Below, piece by piece: positions 1 to 64,000 of a stretch of 64,000 bases of DNA (the first letter of the stretch is position 1; each line of letters starts with the position of its first letter). Both the position numbers and the translations under genes were made by a program. The notes beneath the pieces were generated by a model that did no database searches, was not told the origin of the DNA, and saw only the letters and a list, made by a program, of their open reading frames with translations. The DNA is from Bilabrum cf. latius (taxonomy: Eukaryota), in NCBI GenBank assembly GCA_965178125.1, contig OZ237751.1, positions 558,001 through 622,000 on the forward strand, in the 5' to 3' direction.

Positions 1-2748
1 GTACTTGGCTCGGTTGGCAGATACTGCACCCCCGCACGCCGGCTCCTCTTCCGCAAGCAGCTTCTCGAGCGACTGGCTTCTGCGCATGCCGGACGGACTG
101 CTTAGGGCGAGCCCCAGCTCCTAGTCCATGTCTGACATGGCTGAGAACTGCCTGCTAGGGGTGGGGGCAGGGATACCCCCGTGTGAGACCACCGATGCCG
201 CGCCAGAGTATAGCCCGCTGCTCGTACTCCACGACCTGGTTGGCTGCACAGGCGCGTTTGGGTCTCGCTTGGGCCCGCAGCAACCCCCTTCCTCAACGCA
301 CTCCCTGCCGCCGCAGCAAATGCAGCATGGGCATTCCAAGCAGCACATCCACGGCTCTGAAAGTGACACCGTCATGCGCTACAAACCCTTTAGACAGCCG
401 CGGAACGTCTTTAGAACGCACGAGCACTCCAGCCTGCACGTGAGAAACTCCTCCCCAGCATTGTTTGTGGTCGTCTCGCACACGCAAAGCCTGTCATGCC
501 CACCTGCCACGGCGCGCTTCTTGGCTTCATCGTCTTCCATCTGCTCCAGTGCCCTGCGCAGCCGCTGCACGCGCTGTTCGCGCAGCCGCTTCGCGTTCCG
601 CTTGACCTCTCGCGGAATGTTCTCAAGCACGTCAACGGCGGATGCATCCACCCTAGTGATGGCAGAGCAGTCTACGATGACCGCTTCCGGTGGCAGTGCC
701 GGGCCCATCCCCGGTACCGTAGGCACGTCAGGCGGAGGCGGGGTGGCCTCGTAATCCGCTGGAGTCAAAGGCTCGTAGTTGCCGCGCTGCCTCCAAGGGA
801 ACGAGGCCCGCATGACTTCGTCCCTAAAATGAAGAGCATTTGCAAAGTACAGGTGGGATTCGAACCTGAGAACAGCAACTCCTGGCTCTTCTTTTGCCCT
901 TCTATAGTGCCTGCCAAAGTTGATCCAGCTCTTTGTACCCGGTGCTCGCCCCAGGCGACTCACTCGCGGCGCAGCGCTCTCCTGCAACAAACGACCGAGC
1001 GACAGCACCGCACCGACAGCTAGCCCATTCTGCACACCTAGCCCAACGGTCGCCAGCAGAGTCGCAAAGAACACGGCACAGTCGCGTTTGTCCACCGCCC
1101 ACAGCATCCTGGGAATCTCGGAGTCGAACTGCTTGAGAACAGCGTAAATGATCATGACTCCGAGCGCTACTTGGGGCAGGAAGAAGAACAGCTCAGTGAG
1201 GTACACTAAAGTCACTGACAAAAAAGCTGCCGTGATCCATGAAGACATGGGTGTCCGAGCTCCGGCATCTGCGTTCACGCTGGACCGTGAGAAGGAGCCA
1301 GTGATCGGGAAACCACCGACAGCTGAAGCCGCAATGTTGCCGGCCCCCACCCCTACCATCTCTTGAGTCACGTCCAAAGGCATATCGTACAGGTTCTCTG
1401 CACCTTTCCCTACAGACACGAGCTCGAGGATGCCCAGCCCGGCCGCCACCGCAGCCGGTCCGATGAGCTGCTGCAGGTCCTCGCCGACCGAGGGCACATC
1501 ATCGCCTGATATGCCCTCTGCGCGAGCTGCTCGGTTTGTTTCGGCATTAGAAAACGGATTTTCCAGCACGGGCAGGCCGCTGGGTACCTCGCCCACGATG
1601 CGCACGCCCCGGTCCTGCAGGCCCATGGTGTACACCGCCACGGTGGACAGAGCCACAACCACGAGAGGAGCAGGGATGATGCCTACAGCTCGCTTCCAGA
1701 ACCTGCTCCTATCGTGCTTCACCTGAGGCAGCGACGCGAGGTACGTCTTGGTCCAGGACACGACGAGGAAGGCCAAGAAGCAGCACACGGACAACGCGGC
1801 CGATGCCGCGTGCGTGTCACCCAGCCTCAACCCGACCTGGTACCACACCTGCACCGCCACGGACCGGCGCGGCAGCCCGCTGAGCCCGAGCACCCGGGCC
1901 AGCTGGGAGGACGCGGTGGTGACCGCCACACCAAAGTGGAAGCCCTTGAGCACCGGCTTGGACAAAAACTTGACGATCTGGCCGAACCGAAGGAGGCCGA
2001 GGGCCACCTAAACGAAGCCCACCAGGATGGCGAGGCGGGCCGCAACTGCGGCGTACCGCGCGGAGTTGTACTCGTCGCCGTCGTCCTGCGGCTCCAACCC
2101 AATAGATACTGCTGCTTCTGCGGTCAGAATCGCCTGGAGAGATGCTGGGCCCATCGCCACGGCTGGTGAAGTCGACAAGATTGGGTAGATGACCAGCGCT
2201 GCCAAGCCAGCATACAGCCCGTAAATTGGTCGCAGACCGGCCAATACGGCGTACGCCATGGCCTACGGCACAAGCATAACTGCAGAGGGCGGATGGAGAA
2301 GATTGATGAGATGAAAGTAGGTGCGAACACTAGGTGGCTTGCGGCGTTGCAGATTCTGCGGAGCTCTGATACAACTGGGCGCACTTCACGGCAGTCGCAA
2401 CGGCAGCAGGTACTATAAGCACAATGATACATCAAGTTGATACGGTTTGCGCTTAGAGGGGCTGCAAAGGGTCGAACACCGAAACTGCAACTCACCAGTC
2501 GTCACAAGCCCAGCAGAAATATCGCCTACCGCTGCTGTACCGCTGGCTGTGGGAGCCAAATACTCCAAATTAACCCATTTATGAATATATATTTGTGGAA
2601 GAAGGGACCAAACTTGCAGTAACTGCTCCGATGGGCACGAGCAAGCGCACGGTGATCGCTCAGTTTCTGTTGGACCGTCATCCTTAGCTTGCTGCTCGGC
2701 AGCCCGGCTCCCGACAACCGGCGGCTCACCTGCCGCCGGTGTTCCCAT
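1..2748 (-). CDS. SLC26/SulP family sulfate/anion transporter with STAS domain (3' end runs off window)
   Basis: Exon 1 2748-2496, GT-AG intron 2495-2280, then GDISAGLVTT-V-MLVP[TAG]AMAYAVLAGLRPIYGLY (SulP signature), GSFSRSSVN and STAS-like VLRFESHLYFANA...VIVDCSAITRVDASAV. In-frame TAG at 2263, 2008, 379, 121; frame open to position 1. Confidence 0.93.
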
Positions 2749-3186
2749 CCTTATATCAGAATCTCGGATAGAGACAAGATTATCTCCCTGCTAGCGGAGA
2801 GATTCGTCGGTCATTGGAACCGTCGTTGTCTCTGTATTATTGCAAAGGTACACGCAACTTGAATCTTCAACTCGGGCAAGGAAGACACGTCCCCGGGTGC
2901 CGTGGCAGGCTAGAGAAAGACAATTTGGATGTGGGGCTGGGCTACACCAATCCATATCAAATCGTTTACAATCGGGTCCGGTTAGCTTGCAGAGCAGTAC
3001 ATTAGTACACGTGCTTGTGACAGGCAGAAGCCAGCAGCAAGCACAGCCAAGCAGCCAAAGGGACCCGCACCAAGCAGAAAATCCATGGTTTAAATAACCA
3101 ATGCGGGACAGACAGCACCAGCAGAGCACTTGTTCTCGCGCTCACTCCCTGCCTGCTCCTCACCATCCTCACCACCATCACATGCC

Positions 3187-6100
3187 TCAACCGCTGATCG
3201 CCAATCCGGCAACGAAAGCCTGCTTCACCTTGTCGATCGCATCTGGCCTAGTAAGACCCATCTCCACCAGATGGTTCACCCCGCCTTCTCTCACGTCCTC
3301 CACCTCGCCCTGGGTGAGGCTAAACTCAACGGATAGTCCCACCGAGGACTTGAGGTTGAGCACCGCGTGGCTCCACAGATACCCCACGAACATTACGTCG
3401 CCAGCCTGCTGGGTGCATTCCAGAGGAGCCTGCGGCAGCTCGTCCACTTTGGCCATCCCCTACGGGGTCACTCCGTCAATGTCACCCACGAGACGATCCC
3501 CCAGCCACCACCCGCTGATGCTGCGCCGAGTATAGACCGCCTTGCTGGGGGGCAGCAGGAACCAGCGTTTGGTGCCCGACAGCAAGAACGCAAGAGCAGC
3601 CGAGTGCAGGTGGGGCGGGGCACCGCTCCCAGGCGGCCCGATGAAAAGCTGCTAATTGACGGGCCGCATCAGCCGAGGGCTGTAGATGTGCGGGAAATCC
3701 AGAAGCCTCTGCTTGAGCTCGTCGTCCACGCCAAAGTCGTTGGAGACGTACAGCGGGTCCTTCCCATGGTCCCAGCTCAAGCGATTCCGCAGTGTTCCAG
3801 CTTCTCTCTGCTTCTCGTCCGAGAGACGACCGAACGGAGACAAGGCAGCATCCACACCCTCGATCTCCACATCGCTGCTGTTCTGCGACAGCAGGCTTTC
3901 TTCAATCTCCGCGCGGATGCCGTCCCCGTACAGGTACCGGTCCCTTGCCATCCGATTGCGCTGCTCTTCCAACAACCGCACGCGCTCCGCAGACATCTCG
4001 TCCTCCTCCTCTCGCTGATCTCCCGCTGCCGACACGTCAGTCTGGTTCTTGCTGGAGCCCGACTGGCCGTCGCTGAAGCTGCCCATCGCGACCACCTCCT
4101 CATCGCTCGAGTCCTCGCCGATCTCTGCGGGGTCGTACTATCCCGCATTCTTCTTGGAAGCGCTCTCGCTGTCCTCGCTCACCCCGCGCCTGCGCCTCCG
4201 GCGTTTCTTCTTCTGTCTCTGCTGCCTCTTCATCTTGCGCATTCGGTCGTTCTGCTTGACAAGCTCGTCCGCAAAACGAACGGCAACGGATGAGGTGCTG
4301 GGGGAGCGCATGTACTGCAAAAACTCTATCATGGTCAGCTCCAGGTCGGGCAGCTGGAACTGCCTCGAGTAGGGGATCGTGCCGATCTTGATCTTGAGGT
4401 GCCCTTCGTCCTTCACGAACTAAGTGGGGTCGAATCGGCGCCACCACTGCGAAGTCGAGTTGAGCGCGTTCCGGATCAGGACGGGCCTGGAGGGGATCAC
4501 GTAGTCACGGATGAATGTCTCGGGGGTGAGCCTGGAGATGTCGTCGATCACGTCGATGTCGCACGTGTCTGCAAGCCCGCTGCTGCTGCCTACTGCGGTC
4601 TCACCGCTGGTGTCGGCGTCCGGCTCAGCTGCTTCCGCCGCAGCCACTGCGCTGGGTAGCAGGCTCTGCACCCTTGCGGAAGTCGCTGCCTCCATGGCGG
4701 CACCACGCAGGCGCCATGACGGATGCGTCAGCGTGGCCCAAACGTCGGAGAGCTCTCGCCCCAGCTATCTTGGCGAAGAAACGCCGGCAAGTGCAGAAGA
4801 AGCATCAACTGGTCGCAGCACCGTGGCACGCCACTCTAAAGCGCTCATCTGCTTGCGCGATCGCGCCACGTGTCCCGTGGCGATGTGCAGCAGGAGCTGC
4901 CTGCCGGGCTCCATGGTTGGGGGCGAATCTCTCGATTGCTGCGCGAACCGAACCAGAGCACCATCCAGGGACGAGCCGTCCTCCAGCACTCGCGCGTCAA
5001 TCAGATCGGCAATGTGCCCCCACATATCCTCGTCATCCTCCAGATACATCAGGTCCGAAGTGGTCACCAACAAGTTGCGAACCTGCCTGCGCGCTCGGCG
5101 ACGTACCCACCTGTTGCGTTTCTGCGCCACTACCTGGCGAGGAATCCAGACACGGGGGAACGTGGCATCCTGCAGCGCTCGCATCGTGGCAAAGTCCTTT
5201 GTTGCAGCTGCTTGCGCGGCCAGCTTCGCTCGGGTCTGCATTTCCACAACGGATGCGCCATCGACGCCTTCGTCCTCGTCGGTTTCCACCAGCTGCAAAG
5301 CCACTTCGTAGGGAACGATGGGGAGCAGGTGGCCGTCCAGACTGGGTGATAGCTGCCTCGCGCCAGTTCGAACGGCATCCATTCCTCCGCCGGTGGAGAA
5401 AACCTCGGACTGCTCGATGGACTCGTCGAGTGGATGCAGGTGACTCTCGATTCGCTTCGCAGAGCCGCTTACGTCTCGCTCCAGGGACGTCTCTGCCGCG
5501 CTGCAGACTGGAATATCCGCCTTTGCACCGGCCTTCTCAAGCATGTCCCACACATCGTCCAGCAGGAAGCCTTGCAGGCAGAGAAGATCCATCGCGGTGC
5601 GGCCAGCCGCGTCTGGGCGATTGGGGTCGATGGACGGGTGCTGCAGCAGCGCATGCACCACTCGTGTGAAGCCTCTAGGAGCGGCGTAGTGCAGCGGGGT
5701 AGCTCCGTGAGAAGACATAACGTTGGGATTTGCTCCTGCGACTAGCAGCAATTCCACAGTGGGGAAGTCGCCAGTCATCGCTGCGACGTGCAGGATCGAC
5801 AGCCCGTTGCTGCTGGTGAGATCCAACCCGCAGCCGTAGTAGTGAGCACCGTCACCTGCAGTCACCATCTTTTTGAGTGCAGCGTGGCCGGACTGCATCT
5901 TCCTCAAAGGGGCTCCGAGTCGGCCCTGTTCCCCGGGCGTCAGACTCACGGGGTGCCTCTAGAAAATCGAGTCATCCGTTTGGAACCCAGCCTCGTTCTC
6001 GTCCTCATCCTCCTCTTCGTTCGCCTGCTCGTCCGTAAATCGACCAAACTCGTCGCCGTAGGGGTCAGCGTAGTCATCCTACCGCTCTTCGTCGTCCTGC

Positions 6101-8837
6101 TCCTCCCCGTACAAGTCGATGAGATCTTCCTCCTGGTCCTGCAATGCCGCACCGTTCCTGCCGAGAGGCTGCTTGCACACATCGATCAGCTGTCGCACCA
6201 CGCCGGCCATAGAGACGCCATCTGTTGCCATTCTGTTCACGAGCATGGAGTACGTGATGGATTTTATCTGGCTTGAGGAGGAACTGCCACCGTACTGCTA
6301 AGCCGCCTCTTCGTACGACGAAGCGGCAATCGCCTTGCCAGACGCCTCGTGCTGCTGCTCTGCCTCAAGCAGCTTGTCGAGCTCATCCGGCGGCGCCGGC
6401 ATAGACTGCATCATGCGCATGGTAGAGATGGTGCTGGAAGCGATTCCCAGCATGGAAGCCAACGGGGTGTTGCCGGTCAGGTCAGCGGCGAGGATGTCGC
6501 ACTCTGCCGCACCTGACTTGCCAATGTCATCCACACCCCTCGGTCCTGCCGGGGGCTCCAGGCTAGGCAGCACGCCAGTCTCCTGTGCCTCTGCGAGAAT
6601 CTCGGACATGTTCAAGTTGCGAGCCTTCGTGGTGGACTGAAACCCGGGTTGCTTGACAAGGAACTTGAGCGCCTCGATGTCATTCTGGGCCACTGCGAGG
6701 TGGAGGGGGGTCTAGCCCAGCGCGTCTCGGTCGCACATCCTGCCACCTGACGTGACGATCTCCTTCAGCATCCGGCGGCGAAGCGTGTTCTCTAGCTACG
6801 AGATGTCCTGGGCTCGCTCCACGATCTCACCGGGCGCTCCTGCTTGCTGCATGGCGCGCACCTCTGGCGATGTGGACGAGTGGTGCACAACGATCGTGTG
6901 TGCTGCCGTGTGACCAAGCACGTTCGCGAAATTTGGGTCTGCTCCGAAGTCTAGAAGAAGCTGCACGATCTTCGCCTGGTCGTGGGATGTCGTTTCCTGG
7001 TATCCGGGCTGGGCCTGGGCGCGGCGCCGCTCGTCGTCGCTCGCCCCAAAATCAGGGCGTACTGCCAGCATCGATTGCAGCACAGAGTAGCGAAGGGGGC
7101 GACTGGGGGCGTCGGGACGGGCTCCCATTTCCATGAATGCCTGTGCCATCTGTGGATCGTTCCTCTTGCAGATCTCAAGGAGCACAGAGGACCCGTCCAC
7201 CATCCTCGTGTCCGCTAGGTCGGCCTGAGAGTCGTCCTTGAAGATCTGCATGCCGGGGGCATCGAGGGAGGGTCCCGATTTGGAGGCACTTGCAAGCACG
7301 TCGACGATGCCGTCGCCGTCGAGATCGATGCCCCCGTCGTCGAGAATCTTTAGCGTGCGCTACATGCTCTGCTGACCCGCACCCGCAAGAGACTGGAGAG
7401 CAGCAGCGGATGCCCCGCCCTCTCCCTGCATGCCACCGCTCATGGCCATCCGAAGAAACTCCCTGTGCTGCTCCAGACGCGCCCCCATGGGTACCACGGG
7501 CCCGCAGTGCGTGATGCACGTCATACTGACGTCCTCCGGGGTCGTCCAGACGTGGTATTTGGGACTCATGACCTGCAGGTTGTTGGCAGCGTAGCCCGGT
7601 GGGAGCCGAAATAGGCCGCTGGATTGCCACAGGAACGCATGCTCCGCGCCTTCTACACCCGCCACGCCTCCATGCAGCCCATCCAGAGTCCCAAAGGGAA
7701 CAACGTCACCAGAGAGACCCTCGCGAAGCCGTCCTGCTGAAGCCTCTGCTTCAGCCTGCAGAGCAATGTGAGACTCGTTACCGAAGTGTTCCTTGCCACT
7801 CATGCTCACCATGCCCTCCACGATTGGGAAGAAGAAGAGGTTTTCGGCGGCCTCCTTGTCGCCCTGATTGATAGCGGCGCGCGCCTGCGCTAGTGTTCCA
7901 GCGGGGAATCCCGGGTATGGCACCTTGGCGGTTGGGTCCTGCACAGGGATCTACGGGCTCGCAGCTTCCTCCGTTTCATTAAAAAATGCCTACGGCACTT
8001 CCAAGAAAGCCCACCTTGGGTCCATTTGATCCCTCTTGGGCAAGTGCTTGGACACATAGTCGAGCATATCTCGCCTCATGTCGTTGTCAATCAGAAGCCG
8101 GTCACGAATTTCATCAGTGGCCATGTGCCTCGGCATTCCAGAGTAGCGAACCAGTCGAATGTCATGAGACCAACCCTACAGCTGCGGCACCAGCTCCACG
8201 CCATCTCTGCTCCTTGGGAATGGTGCACCGGTAGGCGGCTGCGGCAGGTCGATACCGGACTCGATCCACTGCCGCACTTCTTCAGCGTGCTCATTCGTGT
8301 CAATCCAGTAGTAGTCTATGAACGTACGATTTGGGCGGCGCACTGCCCGGCTGACCTCATCGCTCAGAGCTGCGCGCGTTGGGTGATAGATTAATGCAGG
8401 ACAGATACGAAACGGATCAGCGTTGCGACCCGATTGTTTGAATAAACAGTAGCTAAGCTGCAGCAAAACTCACCGTGCTGTGTAATGGTCTTCTCGGTGG
8501 CCTCGCAGATCGTTCTAGCGACGCCAGGCGCTAAACCAGTGTTGCACGTTGGGCCGGGCACAAGCATTAGGACCGCCATGCATGACAGCGGGTGGCCGAG
8601 CATCTTCACCTCATTATCATCCATCCCATCAACCAAATTGTCAGCTTCTGCATGCCGGCGTTCAAGGTGCCTGAGCATGTCTGACGGGCTCGTCCGAAGT
8701 AGGATTGGGGTTCGACTCCTTCTTGGCACGTCTTCTGGTGTGTTCTCTTTTAGCCTGGGCGTTTTCCAAGAGCCCATCGAAACAACGCAAGTTGATAGTA
8801 GCACAAAAGAAGATGCTACAAGCATTTGGGCACTCAT
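3187..8837 (-). CDS. Large signal-peptide protein with ankyrin repeats and C-terminal JmjC/cupin domain (JMJD8-like)
   Basis: Hydrophobic N-terminus MSAQMLVASSFVLLSTCVVS; intron ~8473-8370; one frame thereafter with >=14 in-frame TAG. Ankyrin motifs (GHTAAH, G[TAG]TPLHLA, GLSILHVAA, GATPLHYAA, GRTAMD); JmjC motifs TFIRDYVIPSRPVLIRN, QLFIGPPGSGAPPHLH, GTKRWFLLPP, CTQQAGDVMFVGYLWSHAVLN; ends TGA. Confidence 0.8.
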
Positions 8838-9003
8838 GGCCCAGCAAAGTCGCAGTATGTGATTGCGTGTCGATCCACTTGTCCGGTTGCGCCGCGCAGT
8901 TGGCTGCGGAACTTCAGGCTGGTCGCACCTCTGGTCGCATCCGGATGACTGTAGTGAATTCATTTCAATAAGCTCTTTATGGAGCAACGCACAAGCAGAA
9001 CAG

Positions 9004-11967
9004 TTAACCCAGCCCGAACCTCCGCTAGAAGTTCTCGACCAACGAGCCCGTATCTCCGCCGTTGCCAGCCTTTCGCGGATCCTTGCCCAGCTTCTTGAGG
9101 ATATCCTACTACGCCCGCGTCTCAATGCACTTCAGGTCCATCACCTTGGCAAGCTCCTCTTCCGTTGCGGTCTTCCACAAGGCATCAAAACTCTCCGCGA
9201 GGCGGGCCTGAGGCACTGCGAGCAGCTTGAGCAGGAGGTCGATCCTGGGGAGCTCCTTCTGCACGTGCCTCTAGTAGTGGGAGGGGAGGGCAGGTACCTC
9301 AATGTCTTCTTCTTCTTCTTCCGGTGTCTTGGCGCACGGACACGACAGCAGCAGCTGCCTGACGGTTTGAGAGTCCATGAGCATCTGCTGGGCGCCGACT
9401 TCGTTCACACTCTTCACGCGGTAGACCCCAGCCATGTACCTCGGAATGAAGGCCTTGCCGAACCGGTCCAGGAACTGCCGGTAGTACACCGAGTTGATCC
9501 TCTTGCGCACCAGAGGAAACATGTACCTCATTGTCACGCCGAGCGGCCCCACCCACGATTTGTCAGTGACCTGCTCCATGTTCCGGAGGTCGGTCTCACG
9601 GATAGTAGCCACGTGATGGTCCAGCAGGCTGGCGCAATACCCAGCCATGGCCTGGTTTGCATCCACCAAGAGCTTGTAGAACAAGTCCTCTGAGTCCTCC
9701 ATGTTCACACTTGACTTGAACTCGTCCTCCAGCCTGGCAGAAAAGTTCTCCCCAAGCGCCTCGCACGCCTGGGCCATGAACTCGGCAGTGCTCACCACCG
9801 CGCAGAGCCGCTGGACCGTCGCGATCGCGCCTTGCGCGAGCGGAACCGCCCTAGCGGGGCGACCATCCGCGCCAGCCCCAGCGCCGCCGGACGCAGCACC
9901 GCTGGCGCTCCCACCAGCATCGGAAGGCGGGGGCGGCACGCTATACGTCGGTGTCGACACGGGTCCCAGCGGCCCTGCCCTCTAGGTCGGCTGCGGCACG
10001 TGCTTGCCCAGAGCTTCGTGGTACTGCCCGAGCGTCTTCTTTGCTTCCAGGTACAGCTAAAAGAGGATTTCTCCTGTACCTAGCTGCACGCATCGCTTGA
10101 CCGACGACTTGACCTGGTTGACGAGCCCCATGGCGCTGTCGAGGATCACCAGCCGGTCGTCACTCTTCTCGCCGTCTGCCTCTCCGGCCGTGATCTTCTC
10201 CGTGGCGACCTTTTCGACCAACGCCTTGAAGTTGCGCTGCTCTAGTCTCACGTAGGCACCCGTGTAAGGATCGAACACGTCGCTGATGGCGCGATGCAGC
10301 CTCCTGATTCCGGGCAGTGCGTCCAGGGCTTTCTTGGAGTCCGCGCCCACCTCCCTCTCTCCTGTGCCTAGCTGCTGCAGCCACTGCTTCTGCGCCTCAT
10401 CGGCCGAGAGCTGCTCCGTCTTCCTTCGCTTGCTCTCCTCCCACTCTCGCTTCCGCCTGTACTTGAGCTTGATGCCCTCGGCCGTGCCTGGGTCCACAAC
10501 TGCCCCATCGTCGTTGATCAGGGGAGCGTTCGGGTCGAACTCTTCCTCTTGCGCCATGCCACCCGCGCCGTACCCATACCCATTCGAATCCGGCCCGCCC
10601 GCCCCCGCGCCGGAAGCAGGTCCGCTCCCACCCCCGCTCCCGCTCCCGCCGTCGTCTTCCTCCCCGAACACGCTGGGAGGCAGGTCCCGCTCATACCTCT
10701 TGGCCTGCTCCTTCTCGAACTCGAGTGTGCGCTGCAAGGCCCGCACCACCAACTCGGGGGGCACGTCATCAGGCGATTCGTACTTGCTGAGAATCGAGTC
10801 GAAGTCTGTCCTCGTCTGGTCGCAAAACTGAAGGCACAGCCGGTGGCTAAGCCTCCAGTGCTTGGGAAAGACCTCGCCAAACCTCGCCTCCAAATCGCGG
10901 ATCTTGCGACGGAACCAGCTGAAGCGCCTGTCCACCGCATCTAAGGACTGCGCGTCACCCTGCCGAAACTGTTCCCTGTAGGGCTTGAGCTCCTTGCGGC
11001 AGAACTCGCCCAGCCTGTCGCGCAGCACCTCTCCCCCCAGCGCGTCGATGACCTCGCAGGCAGCTCGGAGCTTGGCCATGGCGCCGTCGGGGGGTAGCTT
11101 CGGAGCCGTGGAGGGACTTCCGGCTCCGAGTCCCGCGTAGGAGGATGATCCGCCCCGGGACCGCCTCCTGTCCTGGCCGGCGTCCGCCTGCGCCGCCTCC
11201 TCCACCCCCACCAGCTCAGCGACGGCTTCCTCGGTCAGCAGCTCGAAATTTTCCTGGATTTTCCTTCGAAACACCGACTTGACATCATCATACTGCTGGT
11301 GGAGCTCCTTGACCTGCGGGACTTCGTCCGAGTATCCGCTGAAATGCGTCAAGATCTGGGCCACAACCTCCAGCAGCCTGCCGACCCCAGCGTACGTGCC
11401 GTCCTCTGCAAGCGCCTTCAGCTAGATCAAGCTTGTTGATAACATTTGAATCTTGTCGATAGTAGCGATCGCCTTGTCAAGGTTTGTCTTGGCGTTGTCA
11501 AGCTCCTTAATATCCTTAGAGATCTCTTGAACGAGAGATTCGCTTGCCTCGCTCTTTTCCCGGATAAGATCGGTCCTCTGCTTCAAGTCGTCAATGCTAT
11601 CGCGTGCCGCTTTAATGTCTTTGGCTGCTCTTTCCCCGGCGCTTGCTTGGTCACGCACCGCCGAGAAAAGCTGCTCCTCTAGCTTGCCGGCCTCGTGCAC
11701 CCATCGCTGCACGAAGCCATCTGCACGGTCCAACGAGGCTTCGTCCGGAAAATGCCGGTTGATGTACTCGGTGACGTTGAAGTCAGCTACGTCAAGCTCA
11801 TCACCTGATCCGCCAAGAACCTGCATGGATGGACATGCACCCAAAAATCGCAAAGACAAAGTCTGAGACTGTACGTAGTGTTGTGTCTCGCCTCATACCA
11901 GCTAGAACCTTACCTTCATTAATACCTATTCAACCTCATCGCTCAGCTAACCAGCGTCCATAACCAT
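9004..11967 (-). CDS. VPS53: Vacuolar protein sorting 53 (GARP complex subunit)
   Basis: Exon 1 11967-11914, intron 11913-11821; DELDVADFNVTEYINRHFPDEASL, ISKDIKELDNAKTNL, LDAVDRRFSWFRR, FPKHWRL, GAQQMLMD, VMDLK; ~9 in-frame TAG; ends TAA at 9004-9006. Confidence 0.93.
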
Positions 11968-12689: not shown

Positions 12690-13752
12690 TCAGAACATGC
12701 CGAACTTCTTCGTTGACTGCATCGAGGCAGCCTGCTGCCAGTGTTCCTCGCTGTGGCCCAGGGGCTTGCTGTACCTCGCCTCGTCGTCCGGACGGCCTAC
12801 AAACACCACCTCGGAGTCGTTATCGATGCTCGCCCCCTCGTCCTTGGTCGCAAGGAACGAAGCAATTGCCTCGTCGATGTTCGCCTGCACCAGCTTCCTC
12901 TCGTCCTCGGTATTAGCCAATGAGAGCACTTTCTCGGCGGCCTCCGGGTGATCCAAGAGGACTCTTCCTGGGCTGAAAGATTCCGCGCGAGCCAAGAGAC
13001 CGCTGTCCATAACAAGCGAATCTGTCTCGCGCACCTGGAGTTTGTCTGTGTAGCCGAGCATGATGAGCTGCTGCCGCAAGAATGAACTCTGACCCCTACC
13101 CATCTTTGGATGACGGGTTTCCACACGCGCCTGCAGGTCCTGGCTCCAGTCCTCGTCCTCCTCGTCGCTCTCAGAATCGTCGTTGTCATCTGCTGCACTT
13201 GATCCGCCACGCATGGCTCTCTCTTCCGCTTCCTGTTGCGCTGCTACTCGCTCCTTTTCCTACTAAGACTATCTCTTTCGGAATGCTGCTTCACCCAATG
13301 GGTCCTGCTCAAGCGTGACTTGCAGGTTGCCCTCGTCGTCCTCGTTCATGTTGACGTACTTGTGCATCGTCTTCAGACCGTGCAGGGCAAGACCAACGCG
13401 AAACTGGATCTTTTCAGGGTCTGTCAAGTCCTTATGGTCACGAAATTCTGCGAGTATAGCGCAAAAATAGTCTCAGTCGACACGCAGCACGTCGACGTGG
13501 TGGAAGGTAGAGCTGCTGTGGCGGCAGCGACAAACGTCATTCGAGCTTGCATGCACATAAAGTTACCTTACCATCCTTGATATCCTCAATAAGGGCGTCT
13601 CGCTTCATTGAAGGAAAATGGCGTGCCGTCCTCAGCAACACGCGGTACAGCTTCAGAATTCTGTCCCTACCTGGTCCTTTGCTCGCATGGCGAGATGCTG
13701 AGGATGAAATCCTACGAGTAAGCTTCGATGAGGCAGCAATATACCGGCGCAT
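12690..13752 (-). CDS. LYR-motif (Complex1_LYR-like) protein with C-terminal extension, likely mitochondrial
   Basis: Arg/Ser-rich presequence-like N-terminus, ILKLYRVLLRTARHFPS...IKD|EFRDHKDLTDPEKI across intron 13571-13448; TAG TCT TAG TAG at 13271-13260 in frame; ends TGA. Confidence 0.75.
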
Positions 13753-13832
13753 CGGAACTTTTGGCTGCTGTTTGAGTGTATCGAAAACTTTTCGATTGTC
13801 ACAATATCTTCATCTTCGAAACTCAAGCACGG

Positions 13833-16085: not shown

Positions 16086-16231
16086 ACGAAACGGAAAGGA
16101 CTGTCTTCTCGGTTTCCGTTGGCTCCACCTGTGGATTGCAATGCAGTGCACTTGCAAACCGAATGATGATAAAATGCATAGATCTAGACATCATGTCATA
16201 TTGAAAGCGACTAAACAATCTCAAACAAGTC

Positions 16232-50079: not shown

Positions 50080-50230
50080 AAACGCGCAAGTGTTGTATTG
50101 AGAGTCTGCAAGTTGCGACCAGAGCTTGCGACCACCCAACGTGGAACTTGCTCGGTTGAAGCGAGCAAGGCGGTGCAGTTCATTCCACGGGGTCTTGACG
50201 TCCATTGTATCGGCTCATTCGGCTGTCAAA

Positions 50231-53200
50231 ATGGAGGCCTAGAATCAAATACAAGTACTCGATGCATTATCGCAGCGAATGCAGGTGTTTATGCAGTCAA
50301 TTTGCACGGGGTTGGACGACGTCGCGGCAATCGTGTCCGGGCAATCAGCGCAGATAGCCTCGATTCCGTCCGCGCGTTCGAGCGAAGAAGGTACTACTTC
50401 AGCAGTCGAAGCAGCTAAGCAGGTCTTCAAGTGCTTTGAACAGGTTCTGAAGCGCTAGGACCTCGTGACGATGCTCGAGCACGCAGGCGGAGCACCGTTC
50501 GGCAGCGCTCGTACAATGAAGGCAGGGTTTTTGAAGTACTCAGACCTCCTTCGTTGGTGCATCAATACTTGCAAGAGGCTTCTCAATACCTGCACTGAGC
50601 TAAAGAAAGGCCTTTCGGCCCATCGGCACTCTCATGGAGTGACCTGCCTGCAAGCTCTCCTGCTGTCCAACACTCCGATAATGCTTGCCAAGAACGTGAG
50701 CAACCCAGCAAACTAGGAGTCAACAGATGCAGATTAGCTCGAGGCATGCAGGTTCATGTACTTTTCCTGCATACCGGCGCTGCACTCGATCATCGTGCAG
50801 CTGCGCAAGCAGGGCGAGGATGAGCTCGCGAAACGCCTCCGCCTGCACACGGGAGAAGGAATGCTCATTTTGGGCGATCACGTGCCTTTTGCAACAATAA
50901 AACTCCTTAGTCATGCGCTTAATACGATCAAGGCGGGTGCGCAGCACTGCCGGGTGAACCCACAGGCTGCGAGCGACGGCATGGGCGATGAGGACCTGTA
51001 CCACGCGTCTGTCGCGAAGACCTACATCGACAGAGTCGAAATTTGCTATGAGAGATTAGTATGCAAACTTGACTCGGCTATGCTTGTCGGGTAGCTCGAT
51101 TCCGGGAGCGCAGGAGCCCACGGATCTGAAGGCGTCGGGAAGCAGATCGAGGCGGCGGTGCAGGACCTTCACGAGTTTTGCGAGGAGATGAGCAGCGCCA
51201 TGCAGCACTGCAATGCCATTAATGACGCTAACATGAGGCTGCGTGTCTGGGTCAAGACAGTGACCGCTCTCTATGGTCCGTACAGCGACGCCATCCGGGC
51301 CGCAGTGGCAGCTCACGCCCAGCGACCAGAGCCGCCCTCGGGGTCCCAGCACGGGGCCGGGAGCGACGAGGAGGCATCTAGACCATTCATGATGCTCGTG
51401 AGTGCTGCACTGGCGGTGGTTCGCATGCGGCAAGGGGCCATCGCCAGGCTGGTCGAAGCCAGGGAGGCCGTACTGGCTGAGGCAGCCGAGCAGGCTGACG
51501 ATGAGGCCGAGGAGAACCACGACGAAGAGGGGGAACCTTCCTCGGGGGCAGGCGCGGCGGCATCATCTCGGAGGCAGCGCAAGTCTGCATCCGATTCAGA
51601 CCCAGTCATGGATCGGGCGAGGGAGTGGCAGGTGGCTGCGAGGGCACATGAGGCCGAGCTGCTCGCCATGTAGGGCAACGTGTAGAACGCCCTCAAGATC
51701 GCGAGGCAGTGTGCCGACAGCAGCACCAGCCCGCTCGATGGTCTCAATGTCATGGTTGCGCGGATGCTGCTTAGCACGGGCGGATTTGGCGATGCCCTTG
51801 CGGCGCTGGAGGATGCAGCGCAGGGCATTCTCGACCTGAGCAGAGAGCAGGACGAGACGTCGGGAGACGCACCTGGCAGCAGCCGAAGCGCAGCGCCGAG
51901 CAACGCATCGATGATCGTGCTCGATGCGCTGGCAAGAACAGATCAGTCCTACAGGTCGTTACATCTGCTACGGTCCCAGAGCAGCGGCGGGTCATGGTCA
52001 CCAAAGAAGCTGGCTGTCGCATGCATCGGCCGGACGCTGTACCAGATCCTCTCGCGGTAGGGCCATCGGCTCGATGCCCGTCAGCTGCAGCAGTGCCTGC
52101 CTACCGTTCTACGGTGCATTGTGAGCGTTTCTGGACGGAGTTGCGCCGACTTCATCTTGGTGAGGCTATGCGAGCACCTCGCCTCAGCGCCACAGGACGG
52201 TGGGATGAGCGCGTTCCGAGTACTGGATGCACTGCAGTCCTCCGGGGAGCAGCAACGCGACACAGATGGGTGCTGGGAGACCGAGATCGTCCATCAGTGG
52301 CACAAAGTACATGCCGATGAGCCACGCAGCGGCAGTGCTAGCTCGTCCAAGTAGCAGCCGTTGTGGCAACAGCTGTGCTCCCGCTCAGAGGCGAACGAGT
52401 GCCTGCAGGGCGTGTGCTACGCCGCAACTCGCTCCGCACTAGCACAGAAGCGCTTCAAGGAAGCCGCCAGGCTGTGCGAGTATCACCTGCAGCTCCTCAA
52501 CCGCTACGCCAAGACAACCGCGGCCCACAAGTCGGTGCCGATGAGCCTAAGAGCTCTGGCTGTGAGCCGGACGGGTGACACGGACCGCGCCGTGGAGACG
52601 GCCAAAGCCGCCTTTGACCTTAGCAAGTCACCGCAAGCCCTACTGGTGCTGATTGCAGCGCATCTGGAGCGAGGTTCCAGGGACGGTTCGGACGAGGAGG
52701 CGGTCAAGTCCCTGCTGCCAGCCCTCTCTCGTATGCCAGGCAGCAACTCACGTCTGCTCGCATACGTCGCCATGCAGGCAAGGCGCACCGAGAGCTACGC
52801 AGCAGCGATCGCGACTCTCGAAACCCTGCTGCAGCGGCCCTTAAAGATGGCAGCGTAGTCATCAAGCGGGTGGGAGCACTCGGTCAGCACAGCGCTCGGC
52901 CTACCCGCTGCTTCATCCGGCGCAGGCAGTGCAAGTGGCATCTCCGGGCCGCTCGGTACCGGCAGCGAGGATGGAGCGCAAGGCACAGTAACCGATTCTG
53001 CCACGTATGCCATGCTGTGGATCGAGTGCTCGATGAAGCAATTAGAGAAACAGCACGCCTCCCAGTAGCACCGTGGTGATGGCGACGAACAGGGCCAGGC
53101 CGGGTAGAGCGAGATCCCGTCGGCTCTCGCGAGCACCATCTCTGCCGCTTCCATGCGCGATAGACTGCGCGAAGTGATCCAGACAATCGCGAAGTGCACG

Positions 53201-55156
53201 GACAACCCCTCCAAAACGCTCAACTCAGCTGCAGGCGACAGGCTGCTGAAGCTCGCGTGCCTGTCGTACACTATTTTGCTACAAGCTAGCGGGCAGCAGG
53301 GCAAGCTGTCAAGGGCAGCGCAGGCAGAGGCGTACGAGCTGCTGGCAGCTCTGCTTGCATCCATCCCGTCGAGCACGACCTCGCTACTGGTGGCACGGCT
53401 CAAATGCGTGCTACGAGCCATGCAGCTTCGTCTCGCGGTCGGACTGGCACTTCCAGCCGGAGACACCAGGGCTCGGCACCTCCAGCGAACCACAGAGCTC
53501 GCGGCTAGTTCGATCGGCCTGACCCAAGAGGCCCGCGGCAGGCTGCAGTCGCATCTGCAGCAGGGAGGCATAGCCTCTGCTGGGACCATGCAGGCCGCGA
53601 GCTGGAAGGCAGTAGACCAGCAGCTCAAGGCAGCAGCGCTCTCAGGCGCAAACGGCCTCGAGGTCTTCTTTCCCGAGCCAGAGCTTGCACCTGGCGCCGT
53701 GGGGGCGCTGTCCGCCCTGGACTCCGATCAGTCTGACTCGGCCGCAAGTGCAGCCTTGGAGGTGCTGCACGCTCTTGCCGCCTCTTCTGCAGCCATGGCT
53801 TTCCACGCGAAGGCAGCCCAACCTGTAAGCGCGGTCTCGAACGAGAGACTGGCAGATGCAGCGAAGCAGCTTTCAGAGCAGTATCCGCAGCATCCAACCG
53901 TGCTGGGGTATGCCGCAGCAGCCGCATTCAAGAGCGATGGCAGGGTCCCGGTGGCCGTGAAGGCACTCGCGCTGTAGCTGCAGGTCCTCCTGCGGTCTGC
54001 ACACCGCAGTGGGGAGGTGCTGGCGTCGGTGACCACGCAGCTGATCCGGTGTACTACTGCCCCTAGCAAGAAGCTCAAGTGGATTGCACAGGCCGCGCAG
54101 CTCCATGCAGATTCTGCCCTGCACCCGCCGTTTCCCGACGCCGCCTTGGATGGGATTGCGGTAGACTGCTGGAATTTTGGCGTGTCGCTGCTGCAGTCGC
54201 TCAGCTACAAGCCCGCTCTTGAGTTCCTGAGGCAAGCCATGGCCATGAGGCACAGCTGCGAGACGGTGCTGGGGAGGGAGGCTGAGCTCGCGCACAGCAT
54301 CAAGGTCGTGCAAGCGCTTGCAATGGGAAGGTCTCCCCCGGCCAGGGTGGTGGGGCAGCTCAGTCGGAATGAGGCAGCTGCTGCGGTGCCTGGCAGAAGC
54401 ATGGCCCGGACTTCTGGGAGCTCTGCCCCCATGGACGCTGCTGATGCTGCTGGTAAGCCATCAGGTGCCGGCAGTGGCCTTGATGCTAGTAGCAGTAGCA
54501 GTAGCGGTGATGGTGGTGGGGATATTGCCATGTTGGCCGCCGCCACCGTCGCATCCAAAGCTGGATCGACCGCTGCGCAACATGCGGAAGGCGCCGAGGG
54601 TGTGGAGTGCGGTGGAGAGGTGGAGGATCCCTCAGCTGCTGGGACCACCTCACCTGCAGCAGGAGGTTCGAGTGGGTCTGGTGCAGCGATTGCATCGACT
54701 GCTGTTGCACATCTTGCGTCTGACGCAGAGGGTAGGCAAGCTGTCACTGGCAGTGGCAAGAGCCCGCAACGGGAGGCTGCGGCGGCTGCTGCCGGGAGCA
54801 GCCCCGGGGATCAAGAAGGCGATGAGGGCGCTGCGACTCCAAAGAAGAAGAACTCCAATGAGTACAGTGCACTCCACGGTGCGAGAGAACCGCCAGCTCG
54901 GCGGGAGCCGGCACTCGGTAAGAAGCGAGGTCGAGAGGATGAGCTGGCTGGCGATGCACAGGAGGGCTTCGATGGAGACTCTGCCGCTCCACGAGACGAC
55001 ACCTAGCAGAAGGATGCGATTAGAGCTGATGAGCACGGAGGAGCCGACCGTGATGATCTTGAGGGAGAGGCCTAGGAGATGGATGAAGACGGCACGGAGA
55101 AGGCGGAGGTTCGAGCATCGAAAAGGTTCCGAACCGAGCCACCAGCCGAACTCTGA
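50231..55156 (+). CDS. Large helical TPR-like protein, probable ZIP4/SPO22/TEX11 homolog (~1641 aa, single frame)
   Basis: All ORF-track fragments 50465-55006 share one frame separated only by TAG (~14). TPR-like ALAQKRFKEAARLCEYHL...LAVSRTGDTDRAVETAKAA; C-terminal FPDAALDGIAVDCWNFGV resembles the ZIP4/TEX11 'P..E..WL...WN.G' segment from memory; ends TGA. Confidence 0.55.
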
Positions 55157-55312: not shown

Positions 55313-57777
55313 ATGATTGGTCTACTTGATGCATGCTTATTAGTGCTGCCATTTGTGGTCACGTTTGTGTACTTGTTCTGCAGTCCTGGAACCAAGGTGG
55401 AAGAAAGTTTCAATCTGCAGGCAACTCATGATATCATTTACCACGGCTTCGATCTCGATTCAGTGAGAAACTCCATACCACAATGTGTCTTACCTATTGT
55501 TATATCAGCAACACTAGAATTTCTGCGACCAACCCTTCTTTTTTTATGCAGTATGATCACTTGGAGTTTCCAGGTGTGGTACCGCGAACATTTCTTGGGC
55601 CGATCGCCTTGGCTGTACTTGCCAAGCCCATTCAAACAGTGCTTAGTTTTATCGGAGATGAGATTGCCGAGAAGGCACTGATGCAGCTTGTGGTCCGGGT
55701 GCTGCTTGGCGGCTTGGTATGCATGGCTATTGCTCGGCTGGCATTGTCCGTAAGGCGCACGATGGGTGCTATAGCCATGCGCACGATGCTGCTAGGAGTC
55801 TGCTGTACGTTTCACTTCTGTTTTTACGCGTCGCGGCCGCTGCCAAACACGTTCGCGACCGTGCTGATGACGTACGCGGCTTCGATCTACCTGGACACAC
55901 GAGGAGCAAAAGGAGCCGGCTGGACAGGAGAGTGGGTGGTGCAGCTCGGGTGCCTCGTGGCTGCCGCTGGTCTATTCCGGTGCGACATGATCATGCTCGC
56001 AGTTCCCATGCTCCTGATGCAGCTGCTCAGAGGAAGGGTACAGCTGGTGCCCCTCATTGCTTGGGGGCTCCTCCTCTCGGCTGGGCTGGTCGGCTTGAGC
56101 GTTGCCGTCGACTCGTTCTTCTGGCGACGATGGCTCTGGCCTGAGGGGGAGGTCTTCTTCTTCAACGCGATCCTAGACAAATCGAGCCAGTGGGGTGTGT
56201 CACCGTGGCACTGGTACGGGACACACGCCCTTCCAAAAGGAGCGATGGTTTGGTTCCCACTGGCTGTCGCCGCACCGATCGCTGGGACGGTGGCTCGATC
56301 TCTGTTGTGCTGCTGCTACCGGAGGCAGCGCACCGAAGGAGCCAAAATGCTTCGTGGTGATGCCGCAAAGAGTGATGCATCTGGAGGGCCCGGGGTCATC
56401 GGGACCTGGGTCAGCTTGCCGCTCGAGTCGTCCTTGTCATCGGGCCTGCAAGCACTCGGGATCGACCTGGGTGAAGGATTGCTTGATGCGTGGTTTCCGG
56501 CTGTGTTCTTCGTATTGCTATACAGTCGGCTGCCTCACAAAGAGCTGAGATTTCTGCTGCCTGCCTTCCCTCTGGTCTTCGCCTCGGCCGGCGCTGCTGT
56601 AGGAGCGGTGCTGGGCGAGACATCGACCATGTGGGCTGCGAGACAAGCGCTGGATATTTCGTTAGACGGTCCGGCTGACAGCAAGAAATCAGACACCAAC
56701 TCTATCGAGCACGAACAGGGCAAGGGGCAGACGGTAACGGACAAGGATACCTCTGGCGGCAATTCGACATCGGATTCGAAGGACACTCAAGAGTTGCGGA
56801 GGCGTCGCCGCAAAGCAGCAAGTAAGGAAGAAAGCGTCGATGAACCGGCCAAAAATCCAATGAATGCACCTGCTGTAGATAGCGGTGCGGGCTCGAGTCG
56901 AGCACTGCTGGGGACTCGATTAGCCACTCGCCCAGAAGCATCCTTTGCCTTGCGAGCCACTGCGACTGCAGGACTAGCGTTCTGCTCGCTGATTGCAGCG
57001 TCGCTGTCCGTTGGAGTGTTCCTGCAAGCAGCAAAACAGAATTACCCCGGGTATGACGCCATGAGATGGGTCGACCGAAATTGCGGTTTCTTGGCAGCAG
57101 CTGCTCTGCGAGGTGCCGGGTTCTCAAGGCAAGCGAAATTGACCGGCGAACTGCCCGGATGGGTAGTGCATGCTGGCTAGAATGATGACAGTGAGATGAG
57201 TGGTATTTCTATCCAGTTGCATGTTGATGTTGCATCTGCCGAGCAGGGCGTGAGTCGATTTCTCGAGCCGAGACTTGGGTTCGTGTGCGTTGCGATCGGC
57301 GGCAGCGACTCTCCTCGGGTGCATGACGGTGATTTAATCGACTGGCTTGGAGCATCGGGCGTGGCTGCGGCAAGGCGTGCCACTGCCTGTACGCAGACGG
57401 AGAATGGCAGGAGCGCAGCCCAGGTGCTTCGGGTGCCGGTTCGGCTTGACATCAATAAGACGGAGGGGCTCGGTGCCGCCGAAATGGGCGGATTTGGGGC
57501 AGCGCTGCACTCGGTCTAGTCCAAGACGGTGCGGAAACGGAGGGGGCGCGAGCTAGAGGAGGGCAAGATCGCAAGCTGGCGGCCAGTAAAGCGATTCTCT
57601 AGATTTGACCGAATGCAATTTTCATCATTTGGTGAGCTGCGGTCCATTTGGGCCGGCTTGGCGACCGCTGCACTGCCTGGTGACGGCTCGTTGGCCGGAG
57701 GACTTCGAGCTGTGCTCGCTGCTGTGCTGCCGCGCGCGATTGCGAGGCCTGAGCTGGCTGTGAGCGTCCCGGAGTAA
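55313..57777 (+). CDS. ALG12: Dol-P-Man alpha-1,6-mannosyltransferase ALG12 (GT22)
   Basis: [16 protein letters not shown]...[16 protein letters not shown] (intron ~55463-55551), [15 protein letters not shown]...[38 protein letters not shown] at 57178 and 57517; ends TAA. Confidence 0.93.
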
Positions 57778-61367: not shown

Positions 61368-64000
61368 TCACGTCTTCACTCCCGGGTGACACTGTGCCAT
61401 GTGCGCCTTCAGGTATGTCTTCCTCGTGGTCTCATGCCCGCACTCTGAGCACCGATGCATCACGCCCAGATGCATCGCGCGGACGTGCCGCCTCACAACG
61501 CCCCTCTGCACATCCACATACTCGCAGCCAGGGCAGCACCACACAGGACGGTCACGCGCGTGCTGCTGCATGTGTTGCCGGAGATTGCCAGGCTGCGACG
61601 CCCGCACTGGACACGTGGATCCGTCAGGTAGCTGCAGTCCGCACGCGTAGTATCCTCCCGTGTGCTTGCGCTGGTGGCTGGCGCTGTGTTGCTTGGCATG
61701 GGCCTTCGTCCCCGCATGTGTGGGCTTGAGGCAGTCCGCGCACAGGGCCGTCCACGGCTTGGCGCTGCGTCGGGGGTCCTTGGCGGGCCCGGCCATGGCC
61801 TGGCGGTGCATGGCGGCGTGTCTGGATCTGACGTGTGCCCGCAGCTGGTGTATGTGTGGGAAGGTGGTGTTGCACTCGGGGGCGTGGCAGGACCTGAGGG
61901 CGGGGGCCAGTGTGGATGTGGTGCTGTGATCGTTGCCTTGATCCGAGTGTGGCACGATCCACGTCTTGGTGGCAGTGGCGATGCGGGGCTGCATATCGTC
62001 GATGGCGGCGTCGATGATGGGCGTTGTGCAGGCATCACGAGCGAGCTGCTGCGGTGTGAGGCTTGTGCGGGGCTGCCATGTGATGCTGTCCAACATGCCA
62101 GCGTCAGCGTCAGCTCGAGCACGCATAGAGATGCTTGTAGGTGCAGTAACCCGGCCTCGTCGCTGCGGCTTGCGAGCCGGGACCAGGCTCTGGGGCATGT
62201 AGTCAGGTATGTCGTTGACTTCAATCCCATCCGACGCGTCACAGTCGCCGTCCGACTCGCACGAGCCTGGCTCGCTGACGACCACATCATCCATTGAATG
62301 TGCTCCATGAGCCGCGTCGTCCTTTGCCTGAATGCGTGCTTCAAAGCTCCTGTATCCGGAGTCAGAGCTATCGTCCCCAGCATCACTGCTGCTGCTGCTG
62401 CTGTTGGATCTGGAACTTGCGATGGACGCTCCGTCCTCGCCGCTTGATGAGACCTCCTCATCCGAGAAACCAGAACGCATACCAGCACGATTGATGCGGG
62501 ATTCGCTTGCCGCAGATGAGTCAGATTGTGAAGTCCATCCCGAATCAGAAGCAGACGACACCTCCGAGGACTCAGACGAGGCGTCTCGACGCCATTGTTT
62601 GCCACGCCCCCGAGTTGTGCCATCGTGAAATCGACCGAGCTGCTTGCTCATTGCCACACTCTCAGCTAGCTTCACCAGCTTGCAAGCGGTGTGTTCTCTT
62701 TCTGAAATAGCAGATGCCCCCATCGGAAGGCTTGGCGTGCTACTTGCATCGGGCCCTTCACGCTCCGAAGTGGATCTCATCCACCGATCGATTGCTTTGC
62801 CAGGCGACACCGACCCATGCCGAAGCTGTCGCACAATGCGCCTGCGCCGCTTGAAGTACTTGAAGAGGCCTTCATCACGATCTTGAATGGCTGTGTGAAA
62901 GTCAAGCGAAGGTATTGGCCAATCACTGGGATCATCACCTTCCCTGTTGCATGGCTCTACCGAAAGCGATCGGAATCTTGCTACTGCACTTGCCGTCCTG
63001 TCTGTGCTTCGCTCAAACCCCACTCCGAGATACCCCTTAGTCTGGACGTTGATGCCATGCAGAAGAGTTGGATGGCTGTCTAAAGATACTACATGATGGG
63101 TCGTAGATCTAGAGTCATGATCCGATACCCACAGCTAGCTCAGCGCAGAGCGACAAGCTGTGGCCCAGTCCAATCGAGCCCTATCCTATGACCGACTCCC
63201 TGACTTTTCAGAGTTGGGTTGTGCGTCACATGGATTGCATGGATCCGAGGGCTCGTTAAGCATGCTATATTCAGAACCACCAGCTGAAGGCTGCTATCTC
63301 GCTGCATGGAAAAGTGCACCGAGCGGCTAGTCGTACCTTGTTGACGGCTTAAGATCACTAGACTCGGACCGTTGCTCCTTGAGCAGCACGTCCAGCCAGT
63401 GCACACCATTCAGCTCAATGCTCAGGCTGGCTTCATCGTTGCGGTACACCGCCCGCCTGAGCTTCTGGTATTGCGACAGTGCAGTGCAGAGAATGTCGAC
63501 GGCTAGGAGACGCGCAACGACGTCCTGAATGCGATCAATACTGCCACCATTCGCATGGCTTGTAGCATGTTTACGTCTGTGCAACAATAGCTAAGCTGCT
63601 GATAGTGCACCTATGGATTGCAATTGCTGTCGCCAAGGCATCAGCTCCCCGTCCTGCCATTCCTCGACCCCATCAGGCACAAGAGCTGATGAAGACCTGA
63701 CGAACCACTCTATCTGCTGCCTCGACGCAAAACGCACGTGTACGAATACAAGCCGCTAGACTCTACTGTTTTGCATTGACTGGGTAACCTCATCCGGAGC
63801 ATAGAAGCCAAGCTGGTGCTTGGCCAGGCAGCCACGAATGGCCGAGCAGACCTTCTTCTTCCACCAGTTGGCCGACGAGCTGGGCCGAAGCAGCGTGCTC
63901 AGTAGCTGAGCCGTCGACTACTTTGGCTCAGCTGTTATGATGCGACCATTATCAAGTTCAGTCAACAGCGCGGTAGATCGAACCGCTTGCCACATGCTGG
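61368..64000 (-). CDS. Protein with C-terminal five-finger C2H2 zinc-finger array (5' end beyond window)
   Basis: CHAPEC...H...H, CADC...HQRKHTG, C...C...HMQQH, CPGC...HVRAMH, CSEC...HMAQCH; with TAG as sense the frame stays open from 64000 to TGA at 61368 (~7 TAG between 63135 and 63920). Confidence 0.8.

Follow-up and report, generated by a model that had tools for sequence, protein, structure and literature searches.

What does the codon UAG mean in the nuclear genome of Bilabrum cf. latius? The question is raised by a stretch of 64,000 nucleotides (nt) of the contig OZ237751.1 (assembly GCA_965178125.1, positions 558,001 to 622,000 of the forward strand), which was analysed over its whole length and will be referred to as the window, all positions given below being those of the window itself. 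It carries about 20 protein genes, plainly eukaryotic in kind, at a guanine-cytosine (GC) content of 55-62% (59% overall), and TAG recurs inside their reading frames. The answer proposed here, with high confidence, is a nuclear code in which UAG stands for glutamine, whereas UAA and UGA are the sole terminators, UGA being the main one. That UAG is decoded as glutamine in cytoplasmic translation is shown to the extent that a sequence allows. The same assignment of all three codons had been made in a first-pass annotation of the window, and it is now upheld by four independent lines, namely the residues of homologues, the exchange of TAG and CAG between relatives, spliced RNA and the lack of any internal TAA or TGA.

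TAG inside genes: reading frames, homologues and relatives

The lengths of open reading frames (ORFs) were taken from stop to stop in six frames of the whole window. Under the standard code, the longest ORFs have 764, 588 and 582 amino acids (aa), and five reach at least 500 aa; with TAG read as a sense codon, ORFs of 1760, 1728, 1684, 1236, 1064, 1032 and 962 aa appear, among others, and the number of those with at least 500 aa increases to 16. Reading TAA as sense brings no gain, the longest ORF still having 764 aa and five ORFs reaching at least 500 aa, and with TGA as sense the longest one has merely 834 aa. The commonest stop triplet, counted on both strands, is TGA (1773 vs 982 for TAG).

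Concerning the codon counts, they were obtained for 17 long ORFs with 16,351 codons in total. These contain 110 in-frame TAGs, i.e. 6.7 per 1000 codons versus 7.6 per 1000 off frame. The three TAA and 13 TGA codons found in the same ORFs are terminal in each case, with no internal occurrence of either; off frame they occur at 3.4 and 20.5 per 1000, respectively, so that approximately 390 internal TAA and TGA codons would be expected if the 17 frames were non-coding. Among the codons for glutamine, TAG thus accounts for 110 of 856 (12.9%), the ratio of CAA to CAG being 184:562. The genes for palmitoyl-protein thioesterase (PPT1) and a LYR-motif-like protein add one and three TAGs, respectively, giving 114 in 19 ORFs, each of which has at least one, and the total is about 115-120 once the exons of the GH16 and DHHC genes are included. 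Several Pfam domains, searched with TAG translated as X, run across these codons: Sulfate_transp (residues 35-442, as for the ranges that follow, two TAGs), HAP2-GCS1 (30-539, five TAGs), Cupin_8 (1318-1707, four TAGs), SMC_N (103-1562), Vps53_N and Palm_thioest. The first-pass annotation had described about 120 in-frame TAGs spread over all genes, family similarity continuing on either side of them, and exons free of in-frame TAA and TGA; the counts and domains given here agree with it in all three respects.

The amino acid specified by TAG was deduced from alignments of the HAP2 ectodomain (150 representatives), the SulP transporter (120 homologues) and Vps53 (four homologues), in which TAG was again translated as X, so that it exerted no pull towards glutamine. 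From the 16 TAG columns, three with an occupancy below 50% (SulP 634, SulP 720 and Vps53 934) were dropped and 13 were used. Glutamine is the commonest residue in six of the 13; it is found in 116 of 118 sequences at SulP column 6, belonging to the PQ motif, in 84 of 119 at SulP column 91, in 121 of 148 at HAP2 column 253, and in four, two and three of the four homologues at Vps53 columns 135, 906 and 907, respectively. The background-corrected log2 odds summed over the 13 columns are +17.5 for glutamine and negative for every other residue (-15.4 for glutamic acid and -18.9 for histidine). In the calibration with sense codons represented by at least five columns, the standard meaning was recovered for 59 of 59. 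On average, glutamine makes up a fraction of 0.374 in TAG columns, compared with 0.207 in those of CAG/CAA and 0.027 in the remaining ones.

Alignments with proteins of solved structure (PDB) add individual sites. The first TAG of the SulP gene falls on the conserved glutamine of the PQ motif in all four proteins, and the second one on glutamine in three and glutamic acid in one; the TAG of PPT1 corresponds to the glutamine of the SQGG motif in three of three. In HAP2, for which four chains were aligned, two of them representing one and the same protein, one TAG is matched by Q, S, E and E and another by E, Q, Q and Q. The TAG found at residue 439 of the helicase is uninformative, as the site is variable (A, D, K and G in the printed alignments).

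Close relatives are present in the protein database as fragments. The protein P0005, 98% identical to the SulP gene product, starts right after the first window TAG and stops right before the third one, carrying glutamine at the second. The fragments P0253 (HAP2) and P0296 (SMC), both approximately 80% identical, have edges falling exactly at window TAGs, and the window's SMC gene as a whole corresponds to six database fragments obtained with the standard code (P0292-P0297), breaking at TAGs. Such edges are what the standard-code gene calling produces on a genome with TAG as a sense codon.

A more distant relative is the metagenome contig L001 (7763 nt, 58% GC), the frame of which can be aligned with the window's SulP gene over 758 codons at 76% identity. 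At the conserved glutamine site of SulP both have TAG; elsewhere one window TAG is matched by CAG in L001 and two TAGs of L001 by CAG in the window. The L001 frame has 1810 codons, including 12 TAGs and neither TAA nor TGA, and it runs 1021 codons past the TAG where the database protein, called with the standard code, ends. Since this environmental relative shares the code at 76% protein identity, the use of UAG for glutamine is, judged from these sequences, common to a clade and not confined to one strain. It may be added that in the part 4696-7761 of L001 the SulP frame extends for more than 1000 low-complexity codons beyond the transporter and STAS part.

Gene ends, transcripts and rival readings

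Of the 17 complete gene ends, 14 are TGA and three TAA, which preserves the predominance of TGA seen earlier (17 and three of 20 ends). As TAA and TGA served to delimit the ORFs, the assignment of stops needs outside support. The alignment of PPT1 extends to residue 277 of the 279 residues of the solved protein and to residue 236 of the 238 of the ORF, then comes TGA; Vps53, ending with TAA, has 940 aa versus 949 aa in its best homologue. The earlier caveat that the ends had been set by reading through TAG is thus lifted in part, by the C-terminus of PPT1 and the length of Vps53, and stands for the rest.

It is with regard to gene ends that the most serious rival has to be weighed, i.e. an ambiguous code of the type seen in Condylostoma, karyorelicts, Blastocrithidia and Amoebophrya sp. 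ex K. veneficum, in which UAG would mean glutamine internally and, depending on the context, also a stop. ORF ends defined by TAA and TGA leave room for termination at TAG, and the last TAG of Vps53 lies seven codons upstream of its TAA, with that of four other genes within 45 codons of the end. TAGs do not, however, pile up near the ends: the last one is at most 45 codons away in five of 17 genes, while 4.4 would be expected at uniform density, albeit in a test of low power. Moreover, the L001 frame continues for those 1021 codons beyond the TAG of the standard-code call, and in PPT1 the conserved C-terminus is followed by TGA. The ambiguous code is therefore considered improbable. As for the particular code of Amoebophrya sp. 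ex K. veneficum, it belongs to an AT-rich genome and reads all three stop codons (PMC12005148), whereas in the window TGA and TAA are never internal in frame.

The second rival retains UAG as a sense codon with another meaning—glutamic acid, leucine, serine, lysine, tyrosine or pyrrolysine. One HAP2 column is led by glutamic acid (37 of 137), GAA in L001 and glutamic acid in P0291 each stand opposite one window TAG, and nuclear codes with UAG for leucine and for serine do exist (PMC11687900). The summed odds nevertheless oppose it, those of leucine, lysine, serine, threonine, tyrosine and tryptophan being still lower than those of glutamic acid. The mean fractions at TAG columns are 0.071 for serine, 0.049 for glutamic acid, 0.048 for leucine, 0.027 for lysine, 0.026 for tyrosine and 0.007 for tryptophan, in comparison with that of glutamine given above, and three exchanges of TAG and CAG were seen between relatives. 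An amino acid other than glutamine is hence very unlikely.

Concerning RNA, contigs of four public runs from four studies (X1, X5, X6 and X7) were compared with positions 1-20000. In X1 and X5 the contigs follow the window colinearly and keep the introns, whereas five GT..AG introns are missing from those of X6 and X7, which indicates that the latter derive from spliced RNA. These five introns of the first 20 kb, delimited by means of the spliced contigs, are 93-216 nt long, starting with GT(A/G)AG and ending with CAG on the coding strand. Out of 36 in-frame TAGs in this part, 35 are covered by the listed pieces of X6 and 13 by those of X7, with zero differences. The retention of TAG in the spliced contigs, which come from two studies, excludes both editing and assembly error; CAG in the mRNA or a consensus error, either of which had been foreseen as a finding contrary to glutamine, was thus not encountered. 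Only one difference is listed, C>A at 9070 in the coding region of Vps53, which is present in one X7 contig at a depth of 3.7 and could reflect either strain polymorphism or an error. Another detail is that X6 pieces start at 8970 and 16171, i.e. 34 and 61 nt past TAA stops; this hints at transcript ends weakly at best and was not used.

An artefact or a non-coding origin of the TAGs (assembly or consensus error, UAG edited to CAG, or a series of pseudogenes), for which no supporting point was found, may be practically dismissed, since contigs of four studies show zero differences at TAGs, TAG is kept in the RNA-derived contigs (35 of 36 in X6), and frames of up to 1760 codons without TAA or TGA are unlike pseudogenes. 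A giant virus or phage as the source of the DNA was ruled out, since the GT-AG introns are spliced and the genes are of a cellular kind.

It should be pointed out that some observations weigh against a code with UAG as an unambiguous codon for glutamine and UAA and UGA for termination. Among the 13 TAG columns, seven are variable, their most frequent residues being E, F/Y, S, T/D, D, P and T. At two window TAGs P0291 (89% identical) has glutamic acid and arginine, and two window TAGs correspond to ACT (threonine) and GAA (glutamic acid) in L001, in both cases in a poorly conserved tail. UAA as a stop is documented by three gene ends, TAA being rare in the genome; genes terminated by TAG would not be directly visible with ends defined by TAA and TGA, the positional test being, as mentioned, of low power. 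Finally, the RNA origin of X6 and X7 follows from splicing, whereas the run records do not state RNA.

With regard to the mechanism, the code UAG for glutamine would involve a dedicated tRNA-Gln with the anticodon CUA, decoding UAG, and a release factor eRF1 that would have given up the recognition of UAG and kept that of UAA and UGA. A tRNA(CUA) unable to wobble onto UAA would explain why UAA stays a stop; it is argued in PMC11687900 that a tRNA with this anticodon does not read UAA, and a change in the GTS motif of eRF1 is discussed for Iotanema in PMC5304391, where the substitution T32G is given for this organism. No tRNA gene was detected in the 64-kb window or in L001 and L002, and there was no Rfam match in the window or L001. 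Both the tRNA-Gln(CUA) and eRF1 genes had been placed outside the window already by the first reading, and neither is present among the window's genes.

Genes and repeats of the window

The genes and ORFs recognized in the window are summarized in Table 1.

Table 1. Protein-coding features of the window with their in-frame TAG codons (E-values follow the Pfam and PDB names; empty cells, nothing reported).
Feature	Position (strand)	In-frame TAGs	Stop	Exons, introns and spliced contigs	Basis
SulP/SLC26 anion transporter	1..2760 (-), truncated by window start	4		Exon 2, 1-2279; intron 2280-2495; exon 1, 2496-2760; joint 2279/2496 in X6 and X7	Pfam Sulfate_transp 4.9e-81, also STAS
Ankyrin-repeat and JmjC/cupin protein	3187..8846 (-)	14	TGA 3187-3189	Intron 8370-8473; X6 contig spans 2956-8369 and 8474-8846, 0 differences	Pfam Ank, Cupin_8
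Vps53 (GARP complex subunit)	9004..11818 (-)	7	TAA 9004-9006	Intron about 11819-11911	Pfam Vps53_N 4e-79
LYR-motif-like protein, long C-terminal tail	12690..13722 (-)	3	TGA	Intron 13448-13571; spliced joint in X6 and X7	Weak Pfam Complex1_LYR 8e-4, under gathering score
PG-rich repeat protein, internally duplicated	13833..16190 (-)	1	TGA		
Voltage-gated-type ion channel, long tail	16232..19850 (-)	7	TAA	Intron 19851-19946; X6 contig 16171-19850, 0 differences	Pfam Ion_trans 1e-30
DHHC palmitoyltransferase-like gene	20889..23172 (-)	5 in long acidic tail ORF 20889-22595		More than one exon	Pfam DHHC 7.8e-12 at 22609-23172
Ski2-like helicase (Brr2/ASCC3/Mer3-type)	23541..26465 (+)	5 in first ORF		Sec63 domain in downstream exon, 26145-26465 (Pfam)	Pfam DEAD, Helicase_C, SNRNP200_wHTH; PDB ASCC3 2.3e-141
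498-aa ORF without family	27233..28729 (+)	3	TGA		
HSF-type DNA-binding protein	28844..31114 (-)	4	TGA		Pfam HSF_DNA-bind 2.3e-12
HAP2/GCS1 gamete fusogen	31592..34690 (+)	12 (5 in ectodomain)	TGA		Pfam HAP2-GCS1 4.9e-92; PDB 7s0k 2.3e-61
SMC-family ATPase	34793..39688 (-)	18	TGA		Pfam SMC_N 1.2e-32, residues 103-1562
DUF5054-domain protein	39864..43058 (-)	3	TGA		Pfam DUF5054 1.4e-24
Tandem-repeat protein (27-nt unit)	43376..44683 (+)	1	TGA		
GH16 / SKN1-KRE6-like glucanase exons	45039..45941 (+)	1			Glyco_hydro_16 7e-7, SKN1_KRE6 9e-6
Palmitoyl-protein thioesterase (PPT1)	46212..47571 (-)	1 (in SQGG motif)	TGA	At least 2 exons	Pfam Palm_thioest 2.6e-49
Ankyrin-like / coiled-coil ORF	48475..50079 (+)	2	TGA		
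1684-aa ORF, no Pfam family	50102..55156 (+)	15	TGA		
ALG9-like mannosyltransferase (GT22)	55432..57777 (+)	2	TAA		Glyco_transf_22 1.2e-44
C2H2 zinc-finger protein	61368..63998 (-), truncated by window end	7	TGA		

As regards their homologues, those listed for SulP (1-2280) exhibit 30-39% identity, except for three closer matches at 99%, 79% and 41%. All organism-bearing names among them are bacterial, mainly actinomycete, a bias that may reflect a word-based search favouring GC-rich bacterial sequences. The search of protein clusters with the standard-code ORF of the GT22 gene matched only 'Eukaryota' clusters. The best homologue of Vps53 has 36% identity, and the PDB search with Vps53 gave no match. 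Exon 1 of the LYR-like gene (13573-13722, minus strand) contains an LYR-type motif and is without ATG in the 50 codons before the splice donor; the start of this gene may thus sit in an additional exon or be non-AUG.

Various repeats were observed in the window. The PG-rich gene contains a direct repeat (14569-14868 and 15310-15609, 97% identical, with a spacing of 741 nt), and it is precisely at the duplication in this gene (14598-15936) that the X1 and X5 DNA contigs fragment. The tandem array in the ORF 43376-44683 (positions 44282-44639) consists of 13.3 copies of the 27-nt unit with 97% matches, the unit encoding a nine-residue acidic repeat rich in glycine, aspartic acid and methionine. 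The third one is a block at 57875-62000 composed of segments of 177-300 nt in two or three copies with 85-100% identity, spaced by 779 to 2014 nt (1405 and 1415 recurring); it overlaps long GC-rich ORFs without a family as well as the zinc-finger gene in its 3' part. Genes related to sex and chromosome mechanics—the Ski2-like helicase with its Sec63 domain, HAP2 and the SMC ATPase—are clustered at 23541-39979, which may be due to chance; the same observation takes in the family-less 1684-aa protein further downstream (50102-55156).

Place among known genetic codes

The reassignment of UAG alone to glutamine has been described for Iotanema spirale, Protocruzia tuzeti and two phyllopharyngean lineages (PMC11687900, PMC5304391), so that the kind of code seen here is a known one, and the precedents named by the first-pass annotation—Iotanema and some ciliates—match these papers. 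In the literature covered, comprising few subscription journals and no supplements, no code with UAG only for glutamine was found reported for a GC-rich non-ciliate besides Iotanema, and a publication may thus exist; it looks as if the present lineage has not yet been reported with such a code. UAA and UAG are nearly always reassigned jointly, the nuclear lineages with a split given in PMC11687900 being Iotanema, a rhizarian, Scotinosphaera and a small number of ciliate lineages. A further case would be an independent data point on the tRNA(CUA) and the specificity of eRF1 in the capture of UAG alone. This one combines a GC-rich genome, UGA as the main stop and public DNA and apparently RNA runs. 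If the code had an independent origin in such a GC-rich genome, UAG would not have been made rare by AT pressure, so that a simple codon capture could not account for the reassignment, and the case would offer a natural test of an eRF1 losing UAG while keeping UAA and UGA. In practical terms, standard-code gene callers shatter the genes of this organism, as the six SMC fragments illustrate, and its annotation needs translation table 15.

Among codes that share a part of these features, UAR for glutamine (table 6) is found in many ciliates, Hexamita, Ulvophyceae, Streblomastix and Amoeboaphelidium (PMC11687900). It differs from the present one in that internal TAA is absent from the 16,351 codons, whereas approximately 36 would be expected from the ratio of CAA to CAG; table 6 was also rejected here because no ORF is lengthened with TAA as sense. 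UAG stands for serine in Scotinosphaera and for leucine in a rhizarian as well as in some ciliates (PMC11687900). The rhizarian exLh and Scotinosphaera resemble the present case as non-ciliates with nuclear decoupling of UAG and UAA, but they assign another amino acid, the odds for leucine and serine being strongly negative here. A UAG=Leu code was rejected for the window also on the basis of the leucine fraction, which is 0.048 at TAG columns versus 0.47 at leucine codons. The crAss-like and Lak phages using code 15 likewise read TAG as glutamine; these are, however, phages of bacteria with phage-borne suppressor tRNAs (PMC9523058), while the window represents a spliced cellular eukaryotic genome.

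The codes closest to the present one are those of Iotanema spirale, phyllopharyngeans and Protocruzia tuzeti. Iotanema, a member of the Fornicata, has UAG alone reassigned to glutamine and terminates at UAA and UGA; UAG is a minor glutamine codon in both genomes, representing about 8% in Iotanema (PMC5304391) and 12.9% here. Its main stop is UAA (104 of 119 ends, UGA 15; PMC5304391), whereas in the window it is UGA (14 of 17) at 59% GC. The phyllopharyngeans and Protocruzia tuzeti also have UAG, split from UAA, assigned to glutamine (PMC11687900). In phyllopharyngeans, UAA serves as stop most often and UGA least often, at 27-54% GC (PMC11687900), in contrast to the UGA-dominated ends and the higher GC content found here; set against them are also GT-AG introns of 93-216 nt and about 20 genes on a stretch of at least 64 kb. 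The differences in GC content and stop usage from both Iotanema and the phyllopharyngeans point to a different lineage, without proving it. Whether this organism, its 98% variant and the 76% environmental relative form a clade, neither ciliate nor fornicate, with a further independent origin of the code is regarded as an even question; such an origin is plausible because 59% GC and UGA as the main stop are unlike the UAG=Gln lineages for which the stop usage was checked.

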